A stretch of DNA of 64,000 nucleotides from positions 28,552-92,551 of the forward strand of contig CAYTGV010000001.1 of the NCBI GenBank assembly GCA_964437495.1, read 5' to 3'. This DNA is from an uncultured Planctomycetia bacterium. Lineage in GTDB: Bacteria; Omnitrophota; Gorgyraeia; B26-G9. Below, in pieces: positions 1,308 to 56,847 of this stretch. The notes under the pieces are model-generated. The model did no database searches. It was given only the letters and a program-made list of their open reading frames with translations, and was not told where the DNA came from. The number at the start of each line of letters is the position of its first letter. Within the stretch, counting starts at the first letter, position 1. Both the position numbers and the translations under genes were made by a program.

Positions 1308-3836
1308 TTACTCCTCCTTTTTATTTTCTATGAAACAGCCTGGGTATTCCGAAGCTTTAGAACAAACACCAGCCATTATACCTACAACTACAATACTTGC
1401 TATCAACGTTATACTCCATGAGATGTTTGTATAGCCACGTAGTATATATATAAGAGCCACTGATACAGCAACAGCAATAACCTGACAATATTGACAATTG
1501 CAAAGCATCTTTACCCCTTCTTTTTTTAAGATAACCTCAGGCAGCATAATCATGAGTGCCGGCAGAATAAATAATGTGGCAATACTTGAAACAAACATGA
1601 TCGTAAACATAAAAAAACCTACTGTTCGGTAAGGAATAAGCGGTGCCAGCAAAAGCGGCAGAAATCCAATAGCAATAACAAAAGCATTCCTGCTAATTGC
1701 CCGCGCAGGACCTTTAAACATCTTCTGCACAGTCTCTTGCAAGTTATTATTCTTTCCGTAAAGCACCCTTGCCCGTTCAATAAAATGGATAGCAAAATCT
1801 ATAGACAGCCCTAAGGTCAACGCGGAAAGAACAACAACCGGCATATCATAATCCTTGCCTATAAATCCCAGTAAACTGTAAATAAAAACTATAGTCAAAG
1901 TCAAGGGGATCATTGAGATCAGTCCCCGCAAAGGAGAACGGAACAAGAAAGTCATCATAAAAAACACGATAATAAAACTGCCGATAAAATTCATAAGCAT
2001 ACCAAAAACCATCTTGTTCTGCCAAACCACATTTATAAAAGTCAGCCCGGCCCAGTTATAACTAAGCTCAAAAGGCGGCTTATTTGCCTTTATAAAATCA
2101 TCTACCTGTTTAATAACCCTGCCCATATCCTTATTATCGCCGCTTTTAAGCTGAACCCAGATATTAATCTTTCCATAATCCGGAGTAGCCATATGCCAAA
2201 GATCATCCGGTTTATGAGAATTTTCATAAGATATAAGACATTGCGCAATAGCACGCTTTGTCTTAGGCATAACATTATTGGTTTTGTCTCCTCCCAGCAG
2301 CTCATAATAGACCTTCTTTACAATATCTGTCAGCGCTGTTGTTTTCCCTACATCGCCTTTCGCAAGAAGACTAGCCTGTAATTTTTCAACATACTTAAGC
2401 ATTTTGGGTTCAAGAAAAACCTCAGCCTTTTTATCTTTAGCCTCCAGAACAAGATAAGCCATATACGTACCAGCAAAATGTTTATTTAATATCCTGTCCG
2501 CTATCCTGATTGGATGATTTTTTTTGAACCAGCGCACCGGATTATCGTTAACATTAATTTTAGAAATTCCGTAGAATGAGATTATTGCCAATAAAATACT
2601 GCTTATAATTATGCCTTTATACCTTTTCAGAACAAATCTATGTATATTTTCAAGAACCTTATTCATTAAACCCTGCTGCGTGACACCATCTTTATTTTCA
2701 ATCTTGCAATTTTTAAATGATCTTTCTCTCATCAGCGCGATATAAGCCGGAATGAATGTTAAAGTCAGAAACCAGGCAATCATCACCCCAATAGAAACAA
2801 ATACTCCAAATGTCTGCACCGGAGGAATAGGTGAAAAAGACAAGGAAAAAAATCCCACTGCTGTCGTCAATGAGGTATAAAGCATGGGCGTAAACAGTTC
2901 ATTCATAACAGCGAAAATAGTGCTGCCCTTTTCTCCCGTAACCCTGTATTTATCCGAAAACTCGCTTAAAATATGGACAGAATTAAGTACGGCTATGGGC
3001 ATTAAGAAAATAGGGATCATCGAACTCATGATATGCACAGGAAACCCCAGGCCTATCAATAGTCCCATTGTCATAACAACTGTTGAAATAGCAAGAAGCA
3101 TGGGAGAGATTATTAAGGTAATACTCCGAAAGAAAAGAAACATAAGCAGAAAAATTATCAAACCAGCTAGGGGAGCGGACATGGCCATCTGTTTAAACAT
3201 TTCAACCCCAAATGTATCCTCAGCCACCGGTAAACCCGTAATATAATACTTTTCTTCCCCCTTGAACTGTTTTACAATATTATAGATATTCTGCGAAACC
3301 CTGTAGCTTATATTTTTTCGCTCTATAGGCACATAAACACATAAGGCCTTTCCATCTTCTGACACCATCGTTCCGTTGAACATAGGATTATCCAGAGCCT
3401 CATCCCTAAGAAGAAAGGCTTCTTTTTGTGTGCTCAATGGCCCTTTCATTAGCCATTCAAAGACTACCGAACCGACCATTCCCTGGCGAATATTATCCTT
3501 TGTCGACGGAGCAATTATTTCCCGCGCAATCACACCATCAATACTCTTTATGGCTTCGGTAAGTTCATATATTTTATTTAATGTCTCAACATTAAAGACC
3601 CCGTTATCGTCATGCTCATTAACTATCCCAACAACAATAAAATCATAAATAGCAAATTCTTTTTTTACTTTGTGATGAAAAACCCTGGCAAATTCAGTTT
3701 CAGAAAGCATGTTTTCCGGGTCAGTATCGACTTTTATCTTCGAAAACTGGAACAAAGCAATACCAATTAGAAATATAGTAATCGCCATGATAGTCTTCGG
3801 ACGGTTAAAAGAAAACTTAATTATATTCTTGAACAT
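1308..3836 (-). CDS. MMPL/RND-superfamily exporter (COG1033-type)
   Basis: 842 aa with two bundles of about 6 TM helices separated by large soluble loops, typical of MMPL/RND predicted exporters. Start ATG at 3836 is preceded by a G9 run in the ribosome-binding site. Confidence 0.8.
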   Translation of the reverse strand: MFKNIIKFSFNRPKTIMAITIFLIGIALFQFSKIKVDTDPENMLSETEFARVFHHKVKKEFAIYDFIVVGIVNEHDDNGVFNVETLNKIYELTEAIKSIDGVIAREIIAPSTKDNIRQGMVGSVVFEWLMKGPLSTQKEAFLLRDEALDNPMFNGTMVSEDGKALCVYVPIERKNISYRVSQNIYNIVKQFKGEEKYYITGLPVAEDTFGVEMFKQMAMSAPLAGLIIFLLMFLFFRSITLIISPMLLAISTVVMTMGLLIGLGFPVHIMSSMIPIFLMPIAVLNSVHILSEFSDKYRVTGEKGSTIFAVMNELFTPMLYTSLTTAVGFFSLSFSPIPPVQTFGVFVSIGVMIAWFLTLTFIPAYIALMRERSFKNCKIENKDGVTQQGLMNKVLENIHRFVLKRYKGIIISSILLAIISFYGISKINVNDNPVRWFKKNHPIRIADRILNKHFAGTYMAYLVLEAKDKKAEVFLEPKMLKYVEKLQASLLAKGDVGKTTALTDIVKKVYYELLGGDKTNNVMPKTKRAIAQCLISYENSHKPDDLWHMATPDYGKINIWVQLKSGDNKDMGRVIKQVDDFIKANKPPFELSYNWAGLTFINVVWQNKMVFGMLMNFIGSFIIVFFMMTFLFRSPLRGLISMIPLTLTIVFIYSLLGFIGKDYDMPVVVLSALTLGLSIDFAIHFIERARVLYGKNNNLQETVQKMFKGPARAISRNAFVIAIGFLPLLLAPLIPYRTVGFFMFTIMFVSSIATLFILPALMIMLPEVILKKEGVKMLCNCQYCQVIAVAVSVALIYILRGYTNISWSITLIASIVVVGIMAGVCSKASEYPGCFIENKKEE

Positions 3837-3841
3837 TCCTA

Positions 3842-3850
3842 CCCCCCCCC
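3842..3850 (-). repeat. Homopolymeric C9 (G9 on the coding strand) tract inside the ribosome-binding site of the MMPL exporter
   Basis: Minus strand reads AAGGGGGGGGGTAGGA-ATG. This is the only G/C homopolymer of 8 or more in a roughly 35% GC window. Confidence 0.7.
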
Positions 3851-5953: not shown

Positions 5954-5981
5954 TTGAATTCCTCTTAAAAGTTTCTTTGGT

Positions 5982-6122
5982 TTATTTTACTTCCTTAAAC
6001 TGATCTTTGCCTACCCCGCAATCAGGACAAACCCAGTCGTCCGCAAGCGCCTCAAAAGCCACATTATTATTCTCTGCCGGGTCATAAATATATCCGCAAA
6101 CTATACATTCAAATTTTTTCAT
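5982..6122 (-). CDS. rub: Rubredoxin
   Basis: [19 protein letters not shown]...[19 protein letters not shown] has two CxxCG knuckles. Internal start of track ORF 5982..6206, with GGAGG upstream. Confidence 0.9.
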
Positions 6123-9143: not shown

Positions 9144-12100
9144 ATGAAATACAAAAAAAACACATACAAAAAACTGCTTCTAATTATACTAGTCAACTCT
9201 TTGATTTTTTCTCATTATTTTATTGGGCAAGTTTTGGCTGAGCAGGCCTCCGACACTTATATAAAAAAATACACTAGGATAGATAGTAATGACCTTCTTT
9301 CCCCCCAAAGCAATATTGAAAAGTTAAGGGCAGGCAGCTTTTTCGAAAAAAGCCTCACTTCTGAGTTTACCGGTTCAAGACTGTCAAATAAAAAGCCAAG
9401 AAAATTAGCTGATTTAAAACTGGCCAATAAAAACCTTTTTCCAATCCCGTTCCCATTCCCTTCCGCACAATTTGATCGAGGACAATCAACTCCGGAATGG
9501 CTTGAGTCATATATTATGTCAAGAGTACTTCTAGAGCTAAGTTTCAAGCACAACAACTTGATACCTTTAAAAGCAGCCTTAGAAATTGCCCCGGAAGTTT
9601 TCGAAAATTACGGGCTAAAAGCAAATATAAAAAAAATAATCAAGCTTATTAATGGATTACAAAAAAGAGCTTTAATCTCAAATGCTGACGGTCTTGATTT
9701 CAGCTATAACCACCAGCAGATTATTCAGATTAATGTTCCTTTAAGAACTTTGGCCGTCTGGTCTGATGCCTTTAATTTTATCCGCAGTGATATTAAAAAC
9801 GCTCTTGCTTCTAGCCACTATGATTTCCTTACCATAATTGAGGAATATGCCCTCACTAGTGAATTGTGGCCTGCTCATCCAATTGAATCCCGGTATCCGG
9901 TACTAAGAGCCATTGCCAGTTTAACAGCAGAGGAACAAAAGAAACTCATAGCTATATTACTAAATAATGAACGGCTAAGAACCTATCCGCTCATAGATTC
10001 CACAATACTCATGCTGGACTTCGAGGAAGGAAAAAAAGAGTGGCTGCAAAAATATGCTCCTCAATTAGTAAATCGAAACCTTTATCTTATTGCCGCGGAA
10101 ATATCATTACTTGCCGGCGGCTTAGGAAGAGTGATGCAGTATCACGGAACAAATATGCATAAACTCGGAGCCAATGTGCTTTATGTAGAACCGTATTATC
10201 CCCTAACCAGAGATAAAACTGGATCCGTACAGCCTTTGGACTACTCAGGCTTGGCTATACCCGTTAAAGATTTGAAAAAAATCGACTACGATTTTACCAC
10301 AATAGTTCAAAATGGAAATATTTCTTTTGAAGTCTTTGTCGGGAAAAACACACTCGGCATAACCGTTTATCTGATCAGAGATAAAAAATCCGAATATGTT
10401 AATATCCTGTATGAATACGGCACTCAGGAATCTCCTGCCTCAAATTATGAATTTACCGAGTTTTTCACCAAAGCAACTCTGGAACTTATTAAATATTTGG
10501 AAGTAAAAGAACGAAAAAAATTAGGCAACAGATATAAACCTCCGCTTGTAGATGCAAACGACGGACAGGCTCTGCCCTTAAATGCTTTTAGAAGAATTTT
10601 TTATTTAGATAAGGAAAAAATAATCACAGAAGGCACAAACAAAAGAGATATAGATTTAGCACATGAGGTGTTAACTCAGGCAATTTTTAACGGTACAACT
10701 CATACTTACCGAAACCGCGGTATCATCAATGACTTTAATTACGGCCGTCATTTTTTAAGTAATGCAGGGATCCCAGAAGAATATCTATGGCTGTTTCTTC
10801 GCAAAGAAATCGATGGAACCCTTCTTTGGGATATGACTAGCGGCGGGCTTAGAAGTTCTGATACAAGCAAAGCTGTTTCCGCAATTCATGCCCATGAAAT
10901 GAATGCCCTTGATCCGATGATAAAACTTATCGGCATTACCAACGGCGATGACCGCGTGTATTCTTCCGCTTATTTCAGAGAGGCACTAAAAATTCTGGGA
11001 GTATCCGACTTTGAACATCCCACTGCACAGCAGGTTGCAAAAGCAAAAGCTATCTGCAAAAAAAATATCGGGCTTGACCCTAATCAAATGGTCATCTCCT
11101 ATTCCGGCAGGCTGGTGCAGGAAAAGGCAGGCCGAAACCGTGCTTTGACAGATGAAAACATCGAAGCTCTTGTAAAAGAAGGAATACAGGTACTTATCTA
11201 CGGCAATGTGCAGCCTTATGAAGAAAGCATTGCTATCAAAGAATCTCTTGAAAGACTACAGGAACGCTTATCAAACTCCGGATATAAAGGCAGGCTTATT
11301 TTTAAGCCAAAATTCAATATTGATGAACAAAGACAGCTTTTAGCTGCTACAGATATTCAGATCCAGGATTCTGACCGTTATACCGGAGCTGCCGAATATA
11401 CTGAAGCAGATGTTACCGCTAACGGCGGAATTCAAATGGGCGCTCCATTCTGGGAAGGAATAATTCAAAAACAAGGTGCTGTGATAAATTCAAAAACAAT
11501 GACCGGCAATACCCTTGTACCGGCCGATACAAACAGTAGCTCTTTTTTAAACTCTTTTAACTGGGCACATAAGAAATTCCTAGCTCCAAACAATGAACTT
11601 AGCGTTTATCAGGCCTCTTCTATCGAATTAAGCAGAGTTCTGGAGGCCTCTTTGACAGCTGCCGAATACTTACGCTTCTGGAATAATGCCTTCTGGGAGC
11701 AAAAAAATAAAATGCCAGCTCCGAAACCACGCGTTGCCGGAGAAGTCAACATCCTTGATTTATCCCTTATTTGCCATAGCAACTCAAAATCAGCCTCGAT
11801 TTTACGGCAAGTAAACAACTTCAGCTTGGATTATTCTCCCCAAAAAGGTGACGAATTGGAATTTACCGTTACTATAGACCGCCAGGCTTTTGATTCTCTG
11901 CATTATGGGCAAAAACATCTTGTCTCCTTTGACTTGGTTAGCGCTCAGCTTGTAAATGACTATGGACTCAGAGTACCTTTAAGCATCAAAAAAGTAGCCG
12001 AAATAACTGTAACCTTTAATGCTTTTTTACCTAAAAACCTGCCTCTGCCTTTTAATGGAATTATCGAAATAACTTCCGGATTATGGAAAAGCGCACGCAG

Positions 12101-13114: not shown

Positions 13115-13717
13115 TTAACCGACAAACCAGAAACTTCTTCTTTTTTGCTGAGTCATATCTTTGATCATTAAACCGGTATTTGTAACATAAACATAAAATT
13201 TTTTCCCGCGCTCATAGCGGACAAATGCGCTATTACCATAAACCGCTTCTATGAAAGGGATTGCTCTTTGATATTTATAAAGAAATTCCCATATTTTATC
13301 CCCAGAACTGTATAAGCTGTAAACAATCCGGGGCTTTGCCTTTTCCTTTTCAATGTCCAGGTATCGCCCGCTTAGACGCTCAAGTCGAAAATAACTCCTG
13401 GCACCGGTAATGCCCAAAAAGGATTTCCACTGCACGATTCTGCTTTCGATAACCCATTCATCCGCATTAAACAAAAATGTTCTTACTTTGGATTCTTCCG
13501 TACCCGGGAAAAACTCGATATCAAGAACAGGGCTGGACAGGTTTTCAGAAGACTTACATTCAACAACAGCAACCAAACGCCGCTCACTAAAAAATTTGTA
13601 AGAAGATAAATAAAATCTGCCTATAAGCAAAAAACTTCCAATTAAAAATAAAAACAATAATAATAATAAATTTATAGAGAATCTAGGTGTAAAAATTTTT
13701 AATATCCCTTTTTTCAT
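13115..13717 (-). CDS. Hypothetical membrane-anchored protein downstream of feoB
   Basis: Internal start MKKGILKIFTPRFSINLLLLLFLFLIGSFLLIG (signal anchor) within track ORF 13115..13879. The longer track ORF would overlap feoB. No recognisable domain. Confidence 0.45.
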   Translation of the reverse strand: MKKGILKIFTPRFSINLLLLLFLFLIGSFLLIGRFYLSSYKFFSERRLVAVVECKSSENLSSPVLDIEFFPGTEESKVRTFLFNADEWVIESRIVQWKSFLGITGARSYFRLERLSGRYLDIEKEKAKPRIVYSLYSSGDKIWEFLYKYQRAIPFIEAVYGNSAFVRYERGKKFYVYVTNTGLMIKDMTQQKRRSFWFVG

Positions 13718-13731
13718 GCCTTTACCTTTTT

Positions 13732-15462
13732 TTACAGAATCATATTCAGTACGCCGCCGACAAGCGTTGTGATTGTCAACATGATAATTGTTGCCTGAAT
13801 CAAACGTTTCATCCCAAGCTCTTTTAGAAAAATCACAAAAGTAGCAATACACGGGAAGGACATGGAAAGAACCACACATGCAATAACCAACTGCTTAACA
13901 GTTAAATCCAGAGGTATCAGCATCCCAGCGGCAATATCCTTTCGCAGTATTCCTACGATCAGCACCCAGATTGCTTCTTTGGGTAGACCGAAAACAAAAC
14001 TTAAAACCGGGCCAAATATACCGGAGATAGCTTCAAATATATGCAGCAACTGAAGTACATTAATAATTAAAACACTGGCTAAGACCACAGGCATTGCTTC
14101 TATGATAAAGCCTTTTATCCGGAAAAAAACCTTCTTTAACAGTAATCTTAACGAAGGCATTCGATACGGCGGGATTTCCAGAAATAATTCAGGGCTGTAC
14201 CCTTTTAAAAAATAATTCATTATTGCCCCCAGAAAAAGCCAAACAATAAAAAGCACAGCATATACAAGTGCTACATATCCCCCGCCAAAAGCGCCTAGAA
14301 TACCCACAATCATTGCCTGCAATGCTGCACATGGGACGCCTATTGATATAAGGGTGGAAGCAATGAACCGTTCTCTTTCGCTCTCAAGAATTCTTGTCCC
14401 CAGAATACCGGGCACATTGCAGCCGAACCCAAGCAGTATTGGAATAATCGCAAATCCGTGCAGACCTAATTTATGCATAATATTATCAAGTAAAAGCGCA
14501 AGCCTTGGGATATAGCCGCTATCTTCAAGAAAGCTCAAAAGCAGATAAAATGCTAGCAAATACGGCAGCACCATTACAATTTCCACATAAGGCGCTGTTG
14601 TCAATACGCCCATTGACTGTTGAAAATCAATTTTGCCCTCTATTAAATGTCCAATCAAGATATTATGTAAAAAACTTCCCGGCGAAAGAAATCCGCTTAA
14701 ACGCTCAAGAACCGGCAAATATACAGAATTGAAAAAAGGACCCAATACATAATTAATCAATCCTTCACCGATAAAACGCACTACTTGAAAACTCACAAAG
14801 ACAGCGCCAACCGCTATAACAGCTCCCCACCAGTGATTAACAGATGCGTCTTCAAGAATTTCCAAAAAAGTATGATGTCTGTAACTAAGATGTTGAATTT
14901 CAGCAATTATTTTTCCAATTTCCACCCAGCGCTGCTGATGTGTACGAGTTTTAATATTAGACGGCTTTGCCTGAACAATATTTTCTTTTAATTGTTTAAT
15001 TCCCACACCGGTTATACCGCTGGTAAGCGTAACTTTGACACCCAGCAGCTTTTCAAGTTCCCTGTCTTTTATCGATATTCCCCGGTGTTTGAGTTCGTCT
15101 GACATATTCAAAGCAATAATCATCGGATGATTTGTTTCTAAGAGTTCCATTGTCAGATAAAGATTGCGTTCAAGATTTGTCGCATCAAGAACATTGATGA
15201 TCAGATCAACATCATTAAGCATTTTCACCGCGACCTCTTCAGCCGGAGCACTTGGCTCAAGACTATATGTGCCGGGAAGATCAACTATCTCTACTTCATC
15301 GCCCTCTAGAGTAATTTTACTCTTTAAAAACTCAACTGTTGTGCCCGGGTAATTGGAGACAAGAACCCGCACTCCTGTAAGTCGTGAGAATAAAACACTT
15401 TTACCTACATTCGGATTTCCAATAAGAGCTATTTTTTTTATTTTTTGTTTATGGTTATCCAT
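13732..15462 (-). CDS. feoB: Ferrous iron transporter FeoB
   Basis: N-terminal G-protein domain (IALIGNPNVGKSVLFSRLTG...DLPGTYSL) followed by a polytopic membrane domain. Confidence 0.9.
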   Translation of the reverse strand: MDNHKQKIKKIALIGNPNVGKSVLFSRLTGVRVLVSNYPGTTVEFLKSKITLEGDEVEIVDLPGTYSLEPSAPAEEVAVKMLNDVDLIINVLDATNLERNLYLTMELLETNHPMIIALNMSDELKHRGISIKDRELEKLLGVKVTLTSGITGVGIKQLKENIVQAKPSNIKTRTHQQRWVEIGKIIAEIQHLSYRHHTFLEILEDASVNHWWGAVIAVGAVFVSFQVVRFIGEGLINYVLGPFFNSVYLPVLERLSGFLSPGSFLHNILIGHLIEGKIDFQQSMGVLTTAPYVEIVMVLPYLLAFYLLLSFLEDSGYIPRLALLLDNIMHKLGLHGFAIIPILLGFGCNVPGILGTRILESERERFIASTLISIGVPCAALQAMIVGILGAFGGGYVALVYAVLFIVWLFLGAIMNYFLKGYSPELFLEIPPYRMPSLRLLLKKVFFRIKGFIIEAMPVVLASVLIINVLQLLHIFEAISGIFGPVLSFVFGLPKEAIWVLIVGILRKDIAAGMLIPLDLTVKQLVIACVVLSMSFPCIATFVIFLKELGMKRLIQATIIMLTITTLVGGVLNMIL

Positions 15463-29615: not shown

Positions 29616-30731
29616 CTATCCCTCCTTTTTTATAAATCTTTTTCCATCAACTTCTCTGACCATTCCTTTTAGCTGAAGATCAAGCAAGTTTTTATAAACA
29701 CAAGCAGCGCTCAAAAAACTAGTTTTTATAAGCAGATCAATATGCATTGGCTCACTGCTTAGAAATTGAAGCAGCTTTATTTCTTCTGGATTTAGATCCT
29801 CCCTCAAGGCAGACAGCTGTTCATTCGCCTGAGACTTTCCCCCGTAAATATAAGCGCTGATATTGAGTTCTGATATAATATCCTCTACATTTTCCACAAG
29901 TTTCGCCCCTTCTTTGATCAGCTTATTTGTCCCTTTAGCATTCACTGAATTCGCCGCTCCCGGCATAGCAAAAACTTCTCTGTTTTGTGATAATGCCAGA
30001 TTCGCGGTGATCAATGACCCGCTTCTTTGCGCCGCTTCGACAACAACAACTCCAAGGCTCAGGCCGCTTATAATTCGATTGCGTCTGGGAAAATTTCCTC
30101 TATGCGGAGCAGTATTCAAGGGAAATTCAGACATCACAATGCCTTTGCTGCTGATTGAATCAAATAGATCTTTATTTTCCTGCGGGTATATACATTTCAG
30201 TCCGCTACCCAACACCGCGATTGTACTACCGGACTGCTTTAGTGCACCCCTATGCGCAGCAGTATCTATTCCACGCGCAAGGCCAGAAACAACACAGATA
30301 TCCAGTTTTGAAAGAGCTTCTGCAATACTGGCTGATAGGCATACACCGTTAAAGCTCGCTCTGCGACATCCTACGACAGATACAGTTGCTTTATCCAATA
30401 AAGACATATCGCCTTTGACATACAGGCAGATCGGAGGGTCATATATCTCCTTTAATAGTGCCGGGTATGAAGCATCCTCTGGGCATAAAACCTGAACCCG
30501 ACCATCATTGATCTGCCGGATTTCATTATTAAAGATATCCGAAGTCAGTATATTTTTAATATCCCCAGCAATTCGCTCGTTTATACCCTGCACCTTTATC
30601 AAATTCTCTGCTGAGGCTTCAAATATTGCTTTTACACTGCCAAATCCATCCAACAATCGTTTTGTTAACAGCGGGCCTAAACGATTTACCATATTAAGAG
30701 CAATATAATATTTATTTTGTTCCTGATTCAT
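29616..30731 (-). CDS. dprA: DNA processing protein DprA (Smf)
   Basis: 371 aa with a Rossmann-like DprA core (...VVSGLARGIDTAAHRGAL...VVVVEAAQRSGSLITANLA...). Confidence 0.85.
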   Translation of the reverse strand: MNQEQNKYYIALNMVNRLGPLLTKRLLDGFGSVKAIFEASAENLIKVQGINERIAGDIKNILTSDIFNNEIRQINDGRVQVLCPEDASYPALLKEIYDPPICLYVKGDMSLLDKATVSVVGCRRASFNGVCLSASIAEALSKLDICVVSGLARGIDTAAHRGALKQSGSTIAVLGSGLKCIYPQENKDLFDSISSKGIVMSEFPLNTAPHRGNFPRRNRIISGLSLGVVVVEAAQRSGSLITANLALSQNREVFAMPGAANSVNAKGTNKLIKEGAKLVENVEDIISELNISAYIYGGKSQANEQLSALREDLNPEEIKLLQFLSSEPMHIDLLIKTSFLSAACVYKNLLDLQLKGMVREVDGKRFIKKEG

Positions 30732-31242
30732 TTGACATCTGCCCTTCTACCCAGTTCAATATCTGGACTATAACCTCCTGAGTGCTCAACTCAGACGTAT
30801 CTATACTATAATCTGCTTTTGCGTAATAGAGCTTGCGTTTTTCTAAAAGGTCCTTTATCTTTGACTTGGGATCTGCTATATTAAGCAAAGGTCTATGCAT
30901 ATAATTTTTCGTTCTGTTTAAAATAACTTCCGGCGTCGCCTCAAGGCCGATTATAAATCCGTTTTTTTTAAGATTCTTTATATTTTCCTCATCCAGAACC
31001 ACTCCTCCTCCGCAAGCAATGATCAACCCAGTCCCCGATGCGATTTCCGCAACAATATCTTTTTCCACTTTGCGGAAATACGATTCACCTTTATGCAAAA
31101 AGATATCCACGATCACCATGCCTTCTTTTGCTTCAATTTTTTCATCAAGATCGACATAAATCCCATGCAGTTTACTTGCTAAAAGTTCAGCTATGGTTGT
31201 TTTGCCTGTACCCATAAACCCGACTAGCGCAATATTTTTCAT
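30712..31242 (-). CDS. aroK: Shikimate kinase
   Basis: MKNIALVGFMGTGKTTIAELLASKL (P-loop), using the internal start of track ORF 30712..31305. Confidence 0.8.
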   Translation of the reverse strand: MKNIALVGFMGTGKTTIAELLASKLHGIYVDLDEKIEAKEGMVIVDIFLHKGESYFRKVEKDIVAEIASGTGLIIACGGGVVLDEENIKNLKKNGFIIGLEATPEVILNRTKNYMHRPLLNIADPKSKIKDLLEKRKLYYAKADYSIDTSELSTQEVIVQILNWVEGQMSNESGTK

Positions 31243-31255
31243 TTTCTCTGCCTTA

Positions 31256-32662
31256 CTATTTTCCAATACAAAAACGGTTGAAGATATTATCCAGGATATC
31301 TTCATTAATATTATCGCCTACTAATGACCCAAGTGCATTTAAGGCCTGTCTTATTTCAAAAACAAGGCATTCGTCGAATCCTTTATTTTTAATCAGCAAA
31401 ATCGCATTATTGATGAACGACAGACATTCAACAAGTGATTTTTTCTGGCGCAAATTACTAATGGCTAATTCCTCCGGCGCAGTAGCCCCCTCCTTAAAAA
31501 ATTGCGCAATTATCTGCTTCTCAAGCTGCGCCATCCCCTGCTTGCGCAGTGCAGAAATTTTAACCTTTGACGCGCCGGGAAATATTTTTGCAATATCTGC
31601 AGGGTTGATTCTGTTTTTTAAATCAATTTTATTGATAACAATAACAACCCTTTTATCCTTTAGTTTTCCCGCCACTTCAATGTCTGTTTTATTGATCGCC
31701 CGCGATGAGTCCAAAACAAAAAGAACAAGATCTGCTTTTTGAAAAAAAGCCAGACTTCGCGCAACACTCTTTCGTGTTATAACACAAGAGCTGTCCATTA
31801 TCCCAGCAGTATCCGCAATCCTCACAGGGATCCCGTTAATATTGATAAGCTCCTGGACAACGTCGCGTGTAGTGCCTGATATATTTGTAACAATAACTCT
31901 TTCATACTCAACTAATGCATTCATGATGCTTGATTTACCTACATTGGCAGCACCGGCCAGCGCAATACTTATTCCATTCTGCAGCATAATCCCCTTATCG
32001 GCGCTAGCAATAAATTGCTGAAGATCATTTACTGTTTTTCTCAGAACTTTGTTCAGCCTTGCCCCTGACGCCGAAGATATTGACTCCTCCGGAAAATCAA
32101 TTGCTGCTTCAAGCGAAGAAATAAATTCAATAAGCCCTGAGCGTATTTTATTAATAATAGACGAAAGCCTGCCTTCAAGCTGATAAACCGCTGGCTTGAG
32201 CGCTGCTTCTGTTTTAGCATTAATAATATTTAATACTGCCTCTGCCTGTAACAGATCAATGCGTCCATTTAAAAAAGCCCTTTGGGTAAATTCACCCGGA
32301 GCTGCAAGGCGTGCCCCATTACCTATTACCAATTCCAACACTTTCCTTGAAGTAACAATGCCGCCATGACAATTTATTTCCAAAACATCTTCTCTGGTAT
32401 ATGTATGAGGCGCACGCATTACAGTAAAAAGCGCCTCATCAAGTATTCGTAGCTTGGTTATTGATTTATTATTTCCCTCAATAATATGTCCATAGTGTAC
32501 CGTAAAACCCAAGGCCTTTGAAAGCTTTTTGCCGTTTTTTGAGCGGCAAATTTTATCGCCGATTTTTAAAGCCTTTTTACCGCTAAGGCGAACTATCCCA
32601 ATACCTCCTACTCCAGGAGGGGTCGAGATAGCCGCTATTGTATCATCTGGATTTATCTGCAT
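31256..32662 (-). CDS. mnmE: tRNA modification GTPase MnmE
   Basis: 468 aa with an N-terminal THF-binding domain, G-domain (GAANVGKSS...) and C-terminal CIGK. Confidence 0.9.
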   Translation of the reverse strand: MQINPDDTIAAISTPPGVGGIGIVRLSGKKALKIGDKICRSKNGKKLSKALGFTVHYGHIIEGNNKSITKLRILDEALFTVMRAPHTYTREDVLEINCHGGIVTSRKVLELVIGNGARLAAPGEFTQRAFLNGRIDLLQAEAVLNIINAKTEAALKPAVYQLEGRLSSIINKIRSGLIEFISSLEAAIDFPEESISSASGARLNKVLRKTVNDLQQFIASADKGIMLQNGISIALAGAANVGKSSIMNALVEYERVIVTNISGTTRDVVQELININGIPVRIADTAGIMDSSCVITRKSVARSLAFFQKADLVLFVLDSSRAINKTDIEVAGKLKDKRVVIVINKIDLKNRINPADIAKIFPGASKVKISALRKQGMAQLEKQIIAQFFKEGATAPEELAISNLRQKKSLVECLSFINNAILLIKNKGFDECLVFEIRQALNALGSLVGDNINEDILDNIFNRFCIGK

Positions 32663-42009: not shown

Positions 42010-42690
42010 TTATCGCTTCCTATTGCGTAAAAAAGAAGCAAACACAAATCCCCCTGTGAAACCACCTATATACGCCCACCAGGCTACCTTAACCAGGCCT
42101 TGCCTTGAACCCGGCAAAGTAAAAAATCCATTTAAGAACTGGATAAGAAACCATATACCTAAAAAGAAATATACCGGCATCTCCGCCACAGTCCAAAAAA
42201 TAAACACCGAAAACAAAATTATTATTTTTGCCCCAGAAAAAACAACAAATACGCTCCAGGGACACCAGAAATACATCCGCTTGCCCCCAAAGCAGGCACA
42301 TTAGAATGAATATTTAAATATATGCGTAAAATTTCCAACAAGACCACACAAAATATAAAAGATTAAAAATTTAAAGTGCCCTAATTTATCTTCGGCATTA
42401 TCTCCCAATATCCACAAATACCACATATTCCTCAGTCAATGAAGCCAGCCGGCATGCAGAAAAAGTGAACTTATCAAAGATATTATTCCGGCAATAGCCT
42501 GCGATAATGTCCAGGCCCGCATATTTAAAAAAGCCTCAGGAACTACCGCAAATCTAGAAATCACTTCTTTAAGTTACGATCCAAGCAAAATTTCCTTTAA
42601 AAATATATATATATGCGATTATCAGCAAAATAGTTACCAGCGCCAACCTTCTTGCCTTAGCCTTATCGCGCAAAGGTATCAATATGAAAC
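42010..42690 (-). pseudogene. Decayed rhomboid-family intramembrane protease gene (frameshift plus in-frame TGA and TAA)
   Basis: One frame from 42573 to 42010 reads ...SLFLHAGWLH-*(TGA 42436..42438)-LRNMWYLWILGDNAEDKLGHFKFLIFYILCGLVGNF...-*(TAA 42301..42303)-...VFSGAKIII...VAWWAYIGGFTGGFVF. It carries the rhomboid H..N, GxSG-like and AHxxG motifs. The TM1-like piece RRLALVTILLIIAYIYIF sits upstream in another frame. Track ORF 42010..42276 is the C-terminal fragment. Confidence 0.55.
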
Positions 42691-43348
42691 TCCTTACTAA
42701 TATTTAGCTTAGAATAATATTTTAACAAATTGCTAGATATTCTGCAACACAATTAACTTTTTATAATTAATCTGTTTTTTTAAAGACCCGTCAAAATAGA
42801 AAAATGCTGTAACCTATTAATAATAAAATTGTTATGAATTCAAAAAAGCCTTTATTTTTAAACCCTGGCTTTACTTATTTAATAAAACTCTATTTCTACA
42901 TAAAAAAAAGGAGCTTTTAATACTTACTCTTAAACAAATCCTTGTATGCCTACAAGATCTATGGATCACGACATTAAAACTGTTGATTTTAGAAAATCCA
43001 CATTCAAAAACACAAAAATAAGCTTAAATTAAGAGATCATAAAGCTGCTTGGACAAAAATTCAGCATCAAAAGAGTTCTAACCGCAATTTTTTCAGCCAT
43101 GGGCAAAAGTGTACAATATATAAATAAAGTTCCCCGCGCATTAAAATTAATGAAAAACAGAAATATAAATCGCCAAGGAAATGGGATATTATAGAATCTT
43201 CACTGTATCACCTCAATATAGAGAATAAGGTCTATGCCTTATTAATGGCAAGAAATGCAGGCCATTTACAAAAAGCATCAGTATTAAAGCCCCATAACTA
43301 TGTTTTTAACATAATATACAACAAGACATCTGCCGCCAGAAACTTAGT

Positions 43349-51564: not shown

Positions 51565-52304
51565 AGGTCACCTTTTATTATAATGTCTATAAAATACCTT
51601 TCTAGACTCATATCATCTCCCTTTTGCTTAAAAATATCCTCTACCTTATCTGTTTTTACCAGGACACCTTTATTTATAATTCCAATCCTGTCACAGACAA
51701 GCTCAACTTCTGAAAGCTCATGAGAGGAGAAAAAAATTGTTTTCCCTTTTGCCTTTAACCCTTTAATTATCTCACGTACGCTGCTTCTCGCCAGAGGATC
51801 AAGTCCGCTTGTAGGTTCATCAAAAATTAGCAAGTCAGGATCATTTATTAGGGATTGGGCCAGGCTTATCTTTTGCATCATTCCTTTAGAAAAATTTTTC
51901 ATCAATACATTTGCTTCTGCCTCCATACCAACAAGACTTAGCAAGTTGTCAATTTTTTTATCCGCAGTCTTTTTTCTAAAGCCAAAAAATCCGGCATACA
52001 TTCTAAGCAGTTCCCGTGGGGTTAAATACCAGTAATAATTAGCAATCTCCGGCATATAGCCCATACGTGAACGCACAGAGTAATCAGAAGAATCTTGTCC
52101 AAAAATGCTTATTTGACCCGCGGCTACAGGAAGAAAGTTAAAGATTGATTTTATGGTAGTAGTTTTGCCAGCACCATTAGGGCCAAGAAAGCCAAACACT
52201 TCTCCAGAGACAATCTTAAGCGTAAGATGAGCAATTGCCTTTTTCAGGAAATTGCTTCCTTTATAAGTAACAGATAAATCATTCAATTCCAACGCATATT
52301 TCAT
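51558..52304 (-). CDS. ABC transporter ATP-binding protein
   Basis: Walker A GPNGAGKTT, a signature-like FSKGMMQK, and Walker B LLIFDEPTSGLD. Confidence 0.85.
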   Translation of the reverse strand: MKYALELNDLSVTYKGSNFLKKAIAHLTLKIVSGEVFGFLGPNGAGKTTTIKSIFNFLPVAAGQISIFGQDSSDYSVRSRMGYMPEIANYYWYLTPRELLRMYAGFFGFRKKTADKKIDNLLSLVGMEAEANVLMKNFSKGMMQKISLAQSLINDPDLLIFDEPTSGLDPLARSSVREIIKGLKAKGKTIFFSSHELSEVELVCDRIGIINKGVLVKTDKVEDIFKQKGDDMSLERYFIDIIIKGDLC

Positions 52305-52334
52305 GAGCTTATTATACCAAAAAAAAATTGATTA

Positions 52335-53705
52335 TTAAAGCTGCTTGAAAAACTTATCCTCAAATATCGTCCCTTGATTAAGAACAAGATCAGGATCTAT
52401 TGTCTTTTTAATAATAGCCATTTCACGCAACCCTTTAACGCCAAGCATAATTTTAAGATATTTCCGTTTTAATTTACCGATTCCATGTTCTGCTGAAACA
52501 GTTCCTCCCAATCTAAGGCCTTCCTTGACAAACTCAAGGTAAAGATTTTTAGCCCTTTGAAAATCGTTTTTAGTTTTCGGCATTAAATTAACGTAAAGAT
52601 GATTTTCCCCGATATGGTCGAATACGCAATATTGCATACTGCTGTTTTCAAGTGCGCGTTCATAGAAATCAAACATCCCCGGAAAATGCCTATCTGAAAC
52701 CGCAATATCAGTATTAATCTTCGAAAACCCGTTTTCTTTAACTCTTTCATTTATAAAAACCGGCAAATCGTAGCGCATTGCATTAATAGGAATCTAGCGG
52801 TATTTCGGCCTGAGCATATCAAGAGAGAAGACGTCAAAATATTCAATACAACTAGCATCAATATCGTTATTTTTAGCAGATTTTCGGCTGGTATATGTTA
52901 GTTTTTTAGATTAAAAACAAATTCCAGTGCCTGCATTTTGGTTTTAAAAAAGACTACTCCGTTAAACTCCTGTTCCGGCAATTCACAGAGGATTACTTTG
53001 ATCTTACTTATCATACCTAAAATACCCTCACAACCAATAAACAAGTCAATCAGATCACTACCGGAAAAGATATAATAATCGACAGAATTTTTAACTTTAG
53101 GCAGGCGGTAGCCGGGCAAAGCACAGAATAATGGCTTGTTTTTAATAGGAATATAGAGCCTGTTTTTAACAAAACAATTACCTCTTTGGATATCAAGTAA
53201 TTGCCCTGTGGACAGGATAATATACAGGCCAAGGATATGCTTTCTTGTTGAACCGTATTTAAAACCTTTAGCCCCGGAGGCATTGGTAGCTACGGTTCCC
53301 CCCAAGATATGCATTTTTTTCTGTAGGATCAAGTAAATAGGTGAGTCCGTATTTAGCAGCCTCCAGGCATAACTGCTCAATGCTCACGCCAGGCTCTATA
53401 ACTGCAAATCCCCCAGGCTTGTCCGGAAATTTTTTAATATCAACTATTTTGTTTAGTTTTTCAGTTGAAATTATTGAACCACTCAAGGAAATTCTACCTC
53501 CCACAATACCGGTTTATGCTTCGAATATAGTCAGGGGCATTTTTCCAGAAGCAGCTTCTTTAAAATAAGCAATTGCCTCATATTCAGTTTTAGGAAAAAC
53601 TATTTCCCGGGCATTTCCACAACTCAACCCAGAACTATCCTGTAAATAATCTTTGAATGTATCTATATTCTTTTTTCGTAACATAATTAACCTAATTACC
53701 TTCAT
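52335..53705 (-). pseudogene. FAD-linked oxidase (GlcD / D-lactate dehydrogenase family) gene broken into at least 4 pieces
   Basis: Track ORFs 53514..53705, 53268..53504, 52898..53380 and 52335..52778 together span an FAD_binding_4 domain (...GGNxxTNASGAKGFKYG...) and the C-terminal ...SAEHGIGKLK...DPDLVLNQG. Lesions: an in-frame TAA at 53514..53516 (...LTIFEA*TGIVGGRISL), a frame change inside a G6 homopolymer at about 53299..53304, and a stop/frame break in 52779..52897. Confidence 0.6.
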
Positions 53706-53745
53706 TATAGAATAAAATAGTCATTAACCGCTACAAATAAAAGAC

Positions 53746-53774
53746 TTGACATAAAGTGGCACTTGTGATATTAT
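53746..53774 (+). promoter_or_regulatory. Near-consensus sigma70 promoter of small ORF 53823..54059
   Basis: TTGACA-17 nt-TATTAT; AAGGAGGT lies 9 nt before the ATG. Confidence 0.5.
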
Positions 53775-53822
53775 TTTAATATTGAACGGAGTCATCTGAC
53801 ATTTACAAGGAGGTAAAAAAAG

Positions 53823-54059
53823 ATGCCTAGCAAGAAAAGCCATCCAGAATCATCTGACCAATCAAAGAAAAACGAAATATTGCGTAATTCTACGAGTAAA
53901 AAATTCAATGCAAATAATACCCAATTAAAGCTGGTATGCTTTGAGAATTCAATTGCCTCAAAGATGCGCGAAGAAGACATTATCCGTGCTTGTTCTATCT
54001 ACAACAAGACTCAGGAAAAAATCATTAAACTCAAGATATCACAGATCTATTTTAATTAG
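53823..54059 (+). CDS. Small basic hydrophilic protein of unknown function (78 aa)
   Basis: Strong SD and promoter. Sequence MPSKKSHPESSDQSKKNEILRNSTSKKFNANNTQLKLVCFENSIASKMREEDIIRACSIYNKTQEKIIKLKISQIYFN. Divergent from csrA. Confidence 0.45.
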   Translation: MPSKKSHPESSDQSKKNEILRNSTSKKFNANNTQLKLVCFENSIASKMREEDIIRACSIYNKTQEKIIKLKISQIYFN

Positions 54060-54186: not shown

Positions 54187-54432
54187 CTATTGGGAAGGAT
54201 CTTTTTTCTTCTTAAATATATTAGAAAGCTTTTCTAAATTAGTATGTTTTTTTTGTACTGCGCTTAGATTTTGTTTATGAATAGAATCATATATTTCTTT
54301 TCTATGAACAGGGATATCTCGCGGAGCAGTTATCCCCAGCTTAACTTGCTCACCGCGGACTTCCACAACCTTCACTTCAACATTGTCCCCGATAATTATA
54401 CTTTCATTTGGCTTGCGCGAAAGAACTAACAT
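54187..54432 (-). CDS. csrA: Carbon storage regulator CsrA
   Basis: [48 protein letters not shown]. Confidence 0.9.
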
Positions 54433-54880
54433 TTTTATCCTCTATTTTTTTAAGCATTTCATCCAAAACTAAATGTTGTATCGAATAATCCTGTTCTTGT
54501 AAGACTACCTGTCTACATATATTTTTCTCTTTATTAATCATCAGCGGTGCCAGTAAATTAGCGCTGATTTGATCTGAGCCTTGAGGCACACACACAATAA
54601 CATAACACATGCATTCCTCAATATCGCTGATCTGCAATGCTGTTTTATCCAGTAATGATACTACGGGTTTATAATCCAGTTTAACTTCCAGAGGATCCAT
54701 AATGATAAAATTTATTCCAGAGTCGCTTTGCGACTGCATCCAAAAGAAAGGCTCCTTTGATTTCTCACTCACAATTCTATACTCTTTATGTGTTTCAAAC
54801 CCGATAATCCCTTCCGGAAAAAACATTTTGCTCCCATTGAGCGATGAAGCCCGCTCTTCATGTTTAATAGTTGTTTTCAT
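54404..54880 (-). CDS. fliW: Flagellar assembly factor FliW
   Basis: [43 protein letters not shown] matches the FliW pattern; overlaps csrA as in the Bacillus-type fliW-csrA pair. Confidence 0.85.
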
Positions 54881-55209
54881 ATAACTACTTACCCCCTTTC
54901 TTCATAAACGAACTCATCCATTTATGATCATCATTTTTTGTTTATTAAAAATTTAAACTCCCCAGCATATTGATTGTCATTTGGTTATCCGGCTCAATTA
55001 ATAAAACCTCTTCTAATTCGTACTTTGCGCGCGCATAATTCTTTTTTAATATCGCGCTCATTGCCCTAGCAAAATAAGCATCCGCTTACCCTCCTGCTCC
55101 TTTTTAAAACCGCTGAAACCTTCTGCATTATCTTTGCCTTACTTAAAAGCATTTCCGCTAAAAGCACCATCTGATTTTCCTTAACAACGCTTAAGTTATT
55201 TCTTATTTA

Positions 55210-56847
55210 TTAGTCTCTATCCATCTTTTCACGTAATTGCTCAGAAACATTTTCCATCTTTCTTTCATAATAACTTTTGAGCTTTTCATTTTCTTTTTCA
55301 AGAATGCGAATCTGTTTTATATATTTAGCCTCTTCAATGCGCAGCTTCTTTTCCCATTCAAAAGAATTATGCAGAATCTCTGCTTCAGCGTCTCCTTGGA
55401 GGTTCAGTATCGTTTTTTTCTGTTTAGCCAGTTTTGTCTCTAATGTGCTCTTCTGGTCGGCAATTTTATCTTGCAGTTCTGCTAACTCGCGTTTTTGTCT
55501 TTTATTCTCCTTCTTTACATTTCTAAGCTCATCCTTTACGATTTTAGAAATTTTGTATGCCTCTCTTGTCTCTTCTCCGGAATAAAGCGCTAATTTCTGA
55601 TTCAATATTTGGATCTGATTGTTTTTTTCAGAGACGACTATCGCCTTTGTTTTTATCTCCTCTTTGAGCTTTAGAATATACATCCTCAACTGTTCAGATG
55701 ATTTTTTTAAAACCTCATTTTCTTCTAAATATTTATTTTTTTCCTTCTCTATACTTTGCCCATACTCAAGCTCTTTTTCCGCTGTCAACTGCCTCAGAAT
55801 CTTTTCCTTTTGCTGAGCCTGCTGCTTTGTTTTTTCGATCTCTTGCTCTCTCTTAAAAATTTCCTCAGCATACTTATTTTCTTTACTGCGAATTATTTCA
55901 TCCAGTTTTTCGTATTTTTGATTCAATTTATATTCTAATACTTTTACTTCCTGCTCTGTTTTAATCCTGTATCTCTCTTCAAGCTGGAGATGTTTCTGTT
56001 TATATTCTTCTTCTTTTATTTCCAGTTCTTGATTAAATACGCTTCTTTGTTTTTCTATTTTTTCATTAAAGTCTTTAACCCGCTGCGCCAAAACTCTTAT
56101 CTGAGAGTCTCTCTGAACAATCGAAGTCCCAGCGTCTCCTATTTCCTGTTCCCGGACCATACCCTCTACGCCTTTAGATTCATCCATAATCTGCTGCAGA
56201 CGGGCATCATATTCCTTTTCCTTGCGTTTTAGAACCTCTTTATGCAAATTATCCTTTATTTTTAATTGTTCGCTCAAGCTGTCAACCTTTGCTGTAAGCT
56301 CAATTATCTTTTTCTCACCCCTGTTATCCAGTACGGATTTATCCTTTTGCTTTGCCTGCGCCATAACTTTCTCAAACTGCCCTGATAAGCTTTTCACTTT
56401 CATGTTGAACTCAAGCTCTTTTTGGATAAACGCTTCTTCGCTGGCTTTCTTCTGCTGAACAAAGTCATCCTCAGCCTTAAGTAATTTCTTTTCAAGGCTT
56501 TCAATTACCGGATAAGAAGACTCTTCTACGGCTTTTTGAAATATCAACTGCTGCTTTTTAAGCAGCTGTTCATATTTCACTTTCTGCTTACTGAGTGCCT
56601 CTTCCTGTGCCTGTTTCTGCTTATTCAATTCTTCCTTCAAAAAAGCTATTTCATTATCAAGTATCTTTTTCCAATAATAGCTTTTATTATCCCCAGCATT
56701 TTCATTAACACGATTTGATTGATAGATAACAGTCGGTTCATTAGATTTGACTGTCGCAACTGCCAAGCTAGGGATAAAAACCATCAACGCAATAATTGCA
56801 AGAATCATCTTTAACAAAATATCCGCAGATTTAATATCTCTTTTCAT
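55210..56847 (-). CDS. Membrane-anchored, E/K/Q-rich long coiled-coil protein, co-oriented upstream of fliW-csrA
   Basis: 545 aa with an N-terminal hydrophobic anchor (ILLKMILAIIALMVFIPSLAVA) followed by about 480 aa of heptad-like charged repeats. The many + strand ORFs across 55237..56941 are antisense low-complexity artefacts. Confidence 0.55.
   Translation of the reverse strand: MKRDIKSADILLKMILAIIALMVFIPSLAVATVKSNEPTVIYQSNRVNENAGDNKSYYWKKILDNEIAFLKEELNKQKQAQEEALSKQKVKYEQLLKKQQLIFQKAVEESSYPVIESLEKKLLKAEDDFVQQKKASEEAFIQKELEFNMKVKSLSGQFEKVMAQAKQKDKSVLDNRGEKKIIELTAKVDSLSEQLKIKDNLHKEVLKRKEKEYDARLQQIMDESKGVEGMVREQEIGDAGTSIVQRDSQIRVLAQRVKDFNEKIEKQRSVFNQELEIKEEEYKQKHLQLEERYRIKTEQEVKVLEYKLNQKYEKLDEIIRSKENKYAEEIFKREQEIEKTKQQAQQKEKILRQLTAEKELEYGQSIEKEKNKYLEENEVLKKSSEQLRMYILKLKEEIKTKAIVVSEKNNQIQILNQKLALYSGEETREAYKISKIVKDELRNVKKENKRQKRELAELQDKIADQKSTLETKLAKQKKTILNLQGDAEAEILHNSFEWEKKLRIEEAKYIKQIRILEKENEKLKSYYERKMENVSEQLREKMDRD

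Follow-up and report, generated by a model that had tools for sequence, protein, structure and literature searches.

Remains of a FAD-linked oxidase gene in a probable Omnitrophota genome, very probably a recent unitary pseudogene

In the stretch of DNA analysed here, which is 64 kb long and is called the window in the following, four consecutive open reading frames on the minus strand together recall one FAD-linked oxidase, and the reading frame switches between the second and the third of them at a run of six G residues. The question arises whether this run is the point of interest of the locus, be it as a switch, a recoding site or a sequencing error, or whether it marks one lesion among others in a gene that has been lost. 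From our point of view, the locus is very probably a unitary pseudogene, the ancestor of which was a 500-aa VAO/PCMH FAD-linked oxidase of the D-2-hydroxyacid dehydrogenase branch and the inactivation of which is recent. The window copy is inactivated by at least seven lesions, and the frameshift in the G run is one among them (Table 1).

Gene identity and intact orthologs

The four pieces lie head to tail and are on record as proteins of 56, 72, 138 and 147 aa. Pieces 2 and 3 match PF01565 (FAD_binding_4) with 25.9 and 28.7 bits, and piece 4 matches PF02913 (FAD-oxidase_C) with 90.6 bits in Pfam. Once both frameshifts are mended, 449 codons are left, and the protein stitched together from them finds 500-aa homologs with E = 3e-205, which excludes a chance tiling; both Pfam domains are present in all full-length homologs found in this way. 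The initial annotation, in which the four frames had been read as parts of a single oxidase, is hence borne out by the domain matches and by this search alike.

An intact 500-aa oxidase, encoded by an uninterrupted ORF, lies between orf78 and an ABC ATPase gene in three other genomes, namely L001 (GCA_054039915.1, protein P0001), L008 (GCA_054040495.1, P0003) and L009 (Logan SRR33089659, P0002). The common gene order comprises DUF362, PNP_UDP, a 640-aa protein, FliW, CsrA, orf78 (a 78-aa ORF on the opposite strand, divergent from the oxidase), the oxidase, the ABC ATPase, an ABC2 permease, a TPR protein and SecY, the L009 contig stopping past the ABC genes. In the window and its identical copies, the oxidase slot of this order is occupied by the four fragments, and the shared arrangement makes the oxidases of L001, L008 and L009 positional orthologs of the window pseudogene. 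The stitched protein shows 60-64% identity to P0001, P0002 and P0003 in BLASTP and 67-71% over aligned columns, and in tblastn P0001 covers positions 53684..52338 in three frame segments. With syntenic intact orthologs in three genomes and several independent lesions in the window copy, the earlier reading of the locus as a pseudogene of a FAD-linked oxidase stands.

Among named proteins, the best matches of the stitched protein (about 49% identity) are annotated as 'FAD-binding oxidoreductase' of Candidatus Omnitrophota MAGs, and it is from these source names that the host is taken to be, probably, an Omnitrophota bacterium. A search of the repaired protein against the contigs of species-representative genomes returned only relatives of 36% identity from Brocadiaceae and Planctomycetota. 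A second FAD oxidase was not found by tblastn with P0001 in the 64-kb window.

To judge from sequence comparison, the gene family would be an uncharacterised subfamily of D-2-hydroxyacid-oxidising FAD-linked oxidases, and the branch to which the ancestor is assigned takes in LctD, LDHD, GlcD and D2HGDH. The solved structures closest to intact P0001 are those of LctD (7qh2), mouse LDHD (8jdc), glycolate oxidase (9qgz) and D2HGDH (6lpn), with phmmer E-values of 2.6e-37 for LctD (7qh2_C) and 2.1e-27 for mouse LDHD, in both cases over local stretches only. LctD, the FAD subunit of a lactate dehydrogenase/Etf complex, and LDHD have the two-domain FAD_binding_4 plus FAD-oxidase_C architecture in common with the ancestor, and the H-x6-H and EHG motifs, which serve Mn2+ and substrate binding in LDHD (PMC10589216), are present in the intact orthologs. 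The similarity is, however, distant, and the window copy is dead and carries Tyr in place of the second His. Etf or LctBC partner genes were found beside the oxidase neither in the window nor in the orthologous loci.

The earlier label GlcD-like holds at the level of the superfamily, as GlcD belongs to the same one, has a similar length (about 500 aa) and provides with TIGR00387 the best NCBIfam match of P0001. It does not hold in the stricter sense of an equivalog, since P0001 reaches only 194.6 bits on TIGR00387 (cut-off 567.9) and 88.3 bits on NF008408 (cut-off 897), and since no glcE or glcF gene lies within about 10 kb on each side in the window and the orthologous loci.

Table 1. Coordinates of the features of the oxidase pseudogene and its surroundings (window positions unless a genome is named).
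Feature	Position	Strand	Description or basis
Whole pseudogene	52335..53684	minus	Degenerate gene of a 500-aa oxidoreductase with FAD_binding_4 and FAD-oxidase_C domains
ORF pieces 1-4	53514..53705, 53268..53504, 52898..53380, 52335..52778	minus	Head to tail, tile one protein
Orthologous ATG start (MLRKK...)	53682..53684	minus	A1 alignment with orthologs
FAD-loop motif cluster	53514..53531	minus	ISGAGTG to IFEA(stop)TG; four substitutions within 10 nt
TAA stop replacing Gly of the GxGTG loop	53514..53516	minus	...PLTIFEA(stop)TGIVGG...
G6 run at +1 frameshift	53298..53303	minus	Six G on the coding strand; one base removed restores AYLGGTVATNASGAKGFKYG
One-codon deletion junction (KNK-PLF)	53134/53135	minus	Residue present in every A1 homolog
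-1 frameshift at A6 run	52902..52907	minus	One added A (A7) restores FVFNLKKLTYTSRK
TAG replacing Gln (KYRQIP to KYR(stop)IP)	52794..52796	minus	Orthologs CAA, CAA, AAA
In-frame 150-nt (50-codon) deletion junction	52787/52788	minus	Inside FAD-oxidase_C: ...IP / INAMRYDLPV...
TAC (Tyr) for second His of H-x6-H	52593..52595	minus	GHIGENHLH to DHIGENHLY
Intergenic region oxidase/orf78	53685..53822	none	138 nt vs 217-218 nt in orthologs
Ortholog promoter-like sites	L001 9959..9987; L009 5959..5987	oxidase strand	Consensus match and conservation
orf78-side promoter-like site, 11/12	53746..53774	plus	Consensus scan
Weak promoter-like match, 9/12	53802..53773	minus	Consensus scan
TTAATA-16-TATAAT promoter-like site with TG	52311..52338	minus	Overlaps 3' end (last codons) of pseudogene; consensus match only

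Lesions in the coding and upstream regions

The lesions were mapped by the protein alignment A1 and by nucleotide alignment with the orthologs, and their coordinates were checked base by base. The start had previously been placed at the ATG at 53705; this upstream in-frame codon is without a counterpart in the orthologs, the start of which corresponds to a later ATG (Table 1). As had been claimed, pieces 1 and 2 share one frame and are split by a TAA (FEA(stop)TGIVGG), which falls into the GxGTG loop of the FAD-binding domain, where the codon changes TCC>TTC, GGA>GAA and GGA>TAA lie close together. The second of these exchanges Gly for Glu at residue 55, a column that is at least 97% conserved in 116 homologs.

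Three-frame translation confirms an overlap of pieces 2 and 3, read in two frames, at a run of exactly six G, the one frame ending with AYLGGNRSYQCLRG at a stop and the other running on through HILGGTVATNASGAKG. The run itself had thus been recognised correctly, but the coordinates given for it (53299..53304) are one base off. At this site the orthologs read CTG GGC GGG ACC, CTG GGC GGT AGT and ATG GGA GGA ACC, and the window reads CTT GGG GGG AAC C. The window sequence GGGGGGAACC can be derived either from GGG GGA ACC by an additional G, with G5 becoming G6, or from GGG GGG ACC by an additional A. A slip inside the G run, as originally proposed, is therefore plausible but not the sole reading, because an extra A fits the ortholog codons too; slippage in a G5 run would be the likelier event a priori, and the assignment is not unique. 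An uninterrupted G tract is absent at this site from all three orthologs, so that a conserved slippery site is not at hand.

The second frameshift, of opposite sign, lies at a run of six A. Here a seventh A would restore NLKKLTYTSRK, and A7 is what is found in L009. Each of the two frameshifts is confined by frame constraints to about 9 nt, and each of these intervals contains one run of at least six, of which the oxidase pseudogene has only six in all; homopolymer slippage is hence a reasonable inference for both.

A further break had been expected within 52779..52897. The TAG that replaces a Gln codon and the junction of a 150-nt deletion do fall into this interval, whereas a third lesion, the A6 run, lies just outside it. 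No convincing in-register repeat could be seen as microhomology at the deletion junction when the alignment was viewed by eye. All elements of the original list of lesions are real, but the list was incomplete, as the one-codon deletion and the deletion of about 80 nt upstream were not on it. Compared with the orthologs, about 233 nt were lost and 1 gained.

Besides truncation, residues at the presumed active site are affected. The intact orthologs carry the motifs GHIGENHLH and AEHGIG, the latter of which is kept in the window copy. In the former, the Gly directly before the first His of H-x6-H has become Asp and the second His has become Tyr. This second His aligns with that of GHVGDGNFH in mouse LDHD (8jdc) and is the equivalent of His405. 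In mouse LDHD, His398, His405 and Glu442 bind Mn2+ and the respective Ala mutants are inactive (PMC10589216). The set of metal and substrate residues formed by H-x6-H and E-H (His398, His405, Glu442 and His443 of mouse LDHD) was complete in the ancestor and is incomplete in the present sequence. From the nonsense codons, frameshifts, deletions and lost residues together we infer that no functional oxidase arises from the window copy.

Upstream of the gene, a four-way alignment places the junction of the deletion, with about 80 nt missing beside the oxidase start, at about 53688/53689. The segment lost from the window holds, in all three orthologs, a conserved TTGACA-17-TAACAT promoter-like site which ends 14 nt before the ortholog ATG, and a consensus scan of the window found no equivalent site for the oxidase. 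The assignment of these putative promoters relies on consensus match together with conservation in the three orthologs. At the other end of the pseudogene, the ABC ATPase starts at 52304, 30 nt downstream and just after the promoter-like site that overlaps the last oxidase codons; the TATAAT part of that site is conserved in L001 and L008. Owing to this TG-TATAAT-type site of its own, the ABC ATPase need not suffer from the lost oxidase site, and the downstream ABC-transporter genes probably use it and would hence be unaffected by the loss of the oxidase.

Alternative readings of the interrupted frame

It could be argued that the oxidase is intact in the organism and that its two frameshifts were introduced when homopolymers were sequenced or assembled wrongly, as both lie at homopolymer runs (G6 and A6), have opposite signs, and the frame is regained after the second. 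The TAA, the TAG and the 150-nt, one-codon and 80-nt upstream deletions are, however, beyond the reach of such errors. The frameshift of the neighbouring 640-aa gene sits at an AAA>AA site and not in a long run, and the same window contains 205 homopolymer runs of at least six inside 40 intact ORFs, so that a systematic homopolymer error can be dismissed. Moreover, the same sequence is found in MEGAHIT-style contigs of two ENA assemblies, ERZ27316756 (100% identical over the 20.7 kb compared) and ERZ27317826 (3.2 kb), and in JGI assembly 3300031645 (6.3 kb), all three contigs covering the whole pseudogene at 100% identity. A Logan contig (SRR8862235) is likewise 100% identical over 2.2 kb and extends over the 3' part of the pseudogene only, up to 52909. 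Public assemblies may share a clonal population or overlapping read sets, and this agreement therefore speaks for independence of the assembler and not necessarily of the sample. The four fragments stand as proteins of their own in NCBI, JGI/IMG, Logan and ENA, and the 90% clusters of the four fragments, which represent assemblies and not reads, hold no tract-length variants. Scans of a metagenome collection with the nucleotide context of the G tract and with the protein gave no match; this collection evidently lacks the contigs in question, and the scans have no bearing on tract heterogeneity. Taken together, an artefact is highly improbable, and the earlier emphasis on tract heterogeneity and mis-assembly was misplaced: even with the tract mended, two stops, a second frameshift, the 150-nt deletion, the loss of the promoter-like site and the mutated His would be left.

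Contingency genes with phase-variable poly-G tracts are known in Neisseria, Haemophilus and Campylobacter, and the location of the G6 run exactly where the frame switches is what the window locus shares with them. A phase-variable oxidase caught in its OFF state is nevertheless extremely improbable, since the tract is only six long, has no counterpart in the orthologs (GGCGGG, GGCGGT and GGAGGA), shows no length variants in the public clusters and, if restored to frame, would leave at least five other disabling lesions in a gene that is irreversibly broken elsewhere. It is next to inconceivable that programmed recoding, with +1 and -1 ribosomal frameshifting and stop readthrough, still yields a functional protein: beyond the slippery look of the homopolymers nothing speaks for it, each ortholog is one uninterrupted ORF that lacks these shift sites, four separate events would be required, and the product would still be without 51 residues and the metal-ligand His. 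In addition, TAA, TAG and TGA end ordinary ORFs of the window 34, 14 and 13 times (n=61). Finally, one or more of the fragments might still encode a small protein with a function; a candidate is the C-terminal ORF of 147 aa, which is open from its own ATG, retains its FAD-oxidase_C match and has gathered 12 window-specific changes, close to the 10 of L009. Similar singleton counts are, however, also expected under recent inactivation, and this ORF encodes half a domain without the FAD-binding domain, carries the G>D and H>Y exchanges in the metal-binding motif and is not preceded by a promoter-like site in the consensus scan; we regard its survival as very unlikely. As such, the locus is best understood as a unitary pseudogene, in which the slip at G6 is one plausible lesion without regulatory meaning.

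Age of the inactivation, neighbouring genes and significance

If the window copy is repaired, its pairwise dN/dS values against the orthologs (0.124-0.132) equal those among the intact orthologs (0.128-0.138). Synonymous sites are close to saturation, with dS values of 1.4 or more; the window branch would hence have accrued almost all of its divergence under selection, and the equality with the intact copies points to an inactivation that is recent relative to the separation from the closest relatives sampled. A relative-rate test counts 41 window-specific amino-acid changes and 30 specific to L009, an excess of about 11 that is not significant (p = 0.24), and for seven flanking genes the corresponding numbers are 99 and 98. 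So small an acceleration fits recent inactivation and does not count against pseudogene status; being small and not significant, it leaves the case for loss of function to the disabling lesions.

The changes at conserved sites are more telling. Out of 79 columns that are at least 97% conserved in 116 full-length homologs, five are changed in the window copy (G55E, G202D, T221I, G356D and H364Y), all by GC-to-AT transitions; this is the highest value among 117 sequences, the others having at most 4, with a median of 0. Window-specific non-synonymous changes amount to 25 GC>AT against 11 AT>GC, compared with 42:43 in the seven flanking genes, a difference of marginal significance (Fisher p = 0.048).

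Under a mutation spectrum that is biased towards AT, bacterial unitary pseudogenes come to carry deletions, nonsense codons and frameshifts at homopolymers. The window copy agrees with such ordinary cases in its syntenic intact orthologs, its multiple independent lesions, its homopolymer indels, its GC-to-AT changes at conserved sites and its net deletion, and can be called a textbook case without notable difference. In the course of events that we envisage, selection on the oxidase gene would have lapsed and ordinary mutation would then have disabled the gene at many points: slipped-strand mispairing at the A7 run, and probably at a G5 run, may have caused the frameshifts of opposite sign, and base changes, mostly GC-to-AT, together with deletions may have given rise to the stops, the lost residues and the lost segments. 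The order of the lesions is not recoverable from this sequence. One could speculate that the clustering of GC-to-AT changes, with four within 10 nt in the GxGTG loop and H>Y exchanges in two pseudogenes, reflects a mutation burst and not slow decay.

The oxidase is one of three disrupted genes among about 64 in the window, all of which lie at 42-55 kb and within 13 kb. A rhomboid protease gene at about 42010..42682 falls into four or more frame pieces, contains an in-frame stop and shows H>Y in its AHIGG motif; stitched together, it reaches 95 bits on Pfam Rhomboid. In the gene of the conserved 640-aa protein, which lies upstream of FliW, a TAATAA double stop leaves 545 aa and is followed by a frameshift at AAA>AA; the 46 C-terminal residues cut off in this way have nevertheless kept 85-89% identity to the orthologs. 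Two further candidates for split genes were rejected: 30712..31305 and 31256..32662 encode complete proteins of two different families, shikimate kinase and MnmE, and of 13115..13879 and 13732..15462 the longer encodes FeoB with all its domains, no Pfam match being obtained for the shorter.

Three broken genes may be a sign of continuing gene decay in the lineage, which a single window is insufficient to establish. That the population is actively losing genes at present, with three genes broken at several points each and otherwise still constrained in appearance, seems to us rather unlikely; if it were true, the loss could reflect a lifestyle that has changed recently, for instance towards growing host dependence, with D-2-hydroxyacid oxidation among the functions dropped. 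Growing host dependence has been proposed for some Omnitrophota, and a literature search on pseudogenes in Omnitrophota returned nothing relevant.

Overall, the finding has little significance past annotation, for which it does have consequences: the separately deposited fragments can mislead homology searches, and the oxidase should not be counted in metabolic reconstructions of the MAG. For the organism it means that the population has lost a FAD-dependent oxidoreductase, probably one acting on D-2-hydroxyacids, which its nearest sampled relatives have retained.

Broken genes in the window

In the window, the rhomboid-family protease gene is broken into at least four frame pieces, which when stitched together score 95 bits against Pfam Rhomboid. 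A stop codon lies in frame within ...FLHAGWLH*LRNMWYLW..., and the AHIGG motif carries an H to Y exchange and now reads AWWAYIGGF. The gene is a second pseudogene in the window. The approximately 660 nt upstream (42683..43348) are devoid of a long ORF and non-coding in all frames, and may represent further decayed sequence.

The conserved protein encoded upstream of FliW, for which no match was found in Pfam or NCBIfam, comprises 639-642 aa in the orthologs versus 545 aa in the window. The window copy ends at a double stop, TAATAA, at the position of which a relative's contig with the same gene order (L001, GCA_054039915.1) has GAA AAA; beyond it, 1 nt has additionally been lost from the gene (AAA>AA). 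Since the last 46 residues, although cut off from the protein, have retained 85-89% identity to the orthologs, the truncation is recent.

Features of the window and of relatives' contigs
Feature	Position	Strand	Remark
Rhomboid-family protease pseudogene	42010..42682	minus	Pfam Rhomboid, stitched pieces
Promoter-like site of ABC ATPase gene	52311..52338	minus	consensus match
78-aa ORF (orf78)	53823..54059	plus	divergent from the FAD-linked oxidase pseudogene
FliW and CsrA	54187..54880		adjacent
Severed C-terminal part of 640-aa conserved protein	54948..55209	minus	downstream of ORF 55210..56847
Promoter-like sites of orthologs' oxidase gene	L001, about 9959..9987; L009 (Logan SRR33089659), 5959..5987		consensus match

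Conserved neighbours and strand asymmetry

The genes for FliW and CsrA overlap by 29 nt, and CsrA shows 90-99% identity across the four genomes, namely the window and three relatives' contigs; the neighbours examined included no noticeable gene for flagellin or other flagellar components. In each of the four genomes, orf78, which has no match in Pfam or NCBIfam, has kept its length of 78 aa. Its coding sequence is less conserved than the ~120 nt upstream of its start (intergenic 53715..53822), a region that shares 86% identity with L001 over 86 nt and harbors a TTGACA-17-TATTAT site with TG, matching at 11 of 12 positions.

On the scale of the whole window, the strand asymmetry is strong: 54 of the 61 long ORFs lie on the minus strand, and the GC skew stays below zero throughout (about -0.1 to -0.3). 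This is consistent with the window belonging to one replichore whose genes run in the direction of replication.

Regions preceding start codons

The longest G/C homopolymer of the window, a C9 run on the plus strand at 3842..3850 (G9 on the coding strand), precedes the start of an 842-aa MMPL/RND-type transporter ORF (1308..3836, minus strand) by 6 nt, and could constitute a candidate variable tract in the 5' region.

At the ABC ATPase gene and the orthologs' oxidase gene, the promoter-like -10 elements precede the ATG by only about 7-14 nt and no Shine-Dalgarno sequence is evident, which suggests that 5' leaders may be very short or absent in this lineage.
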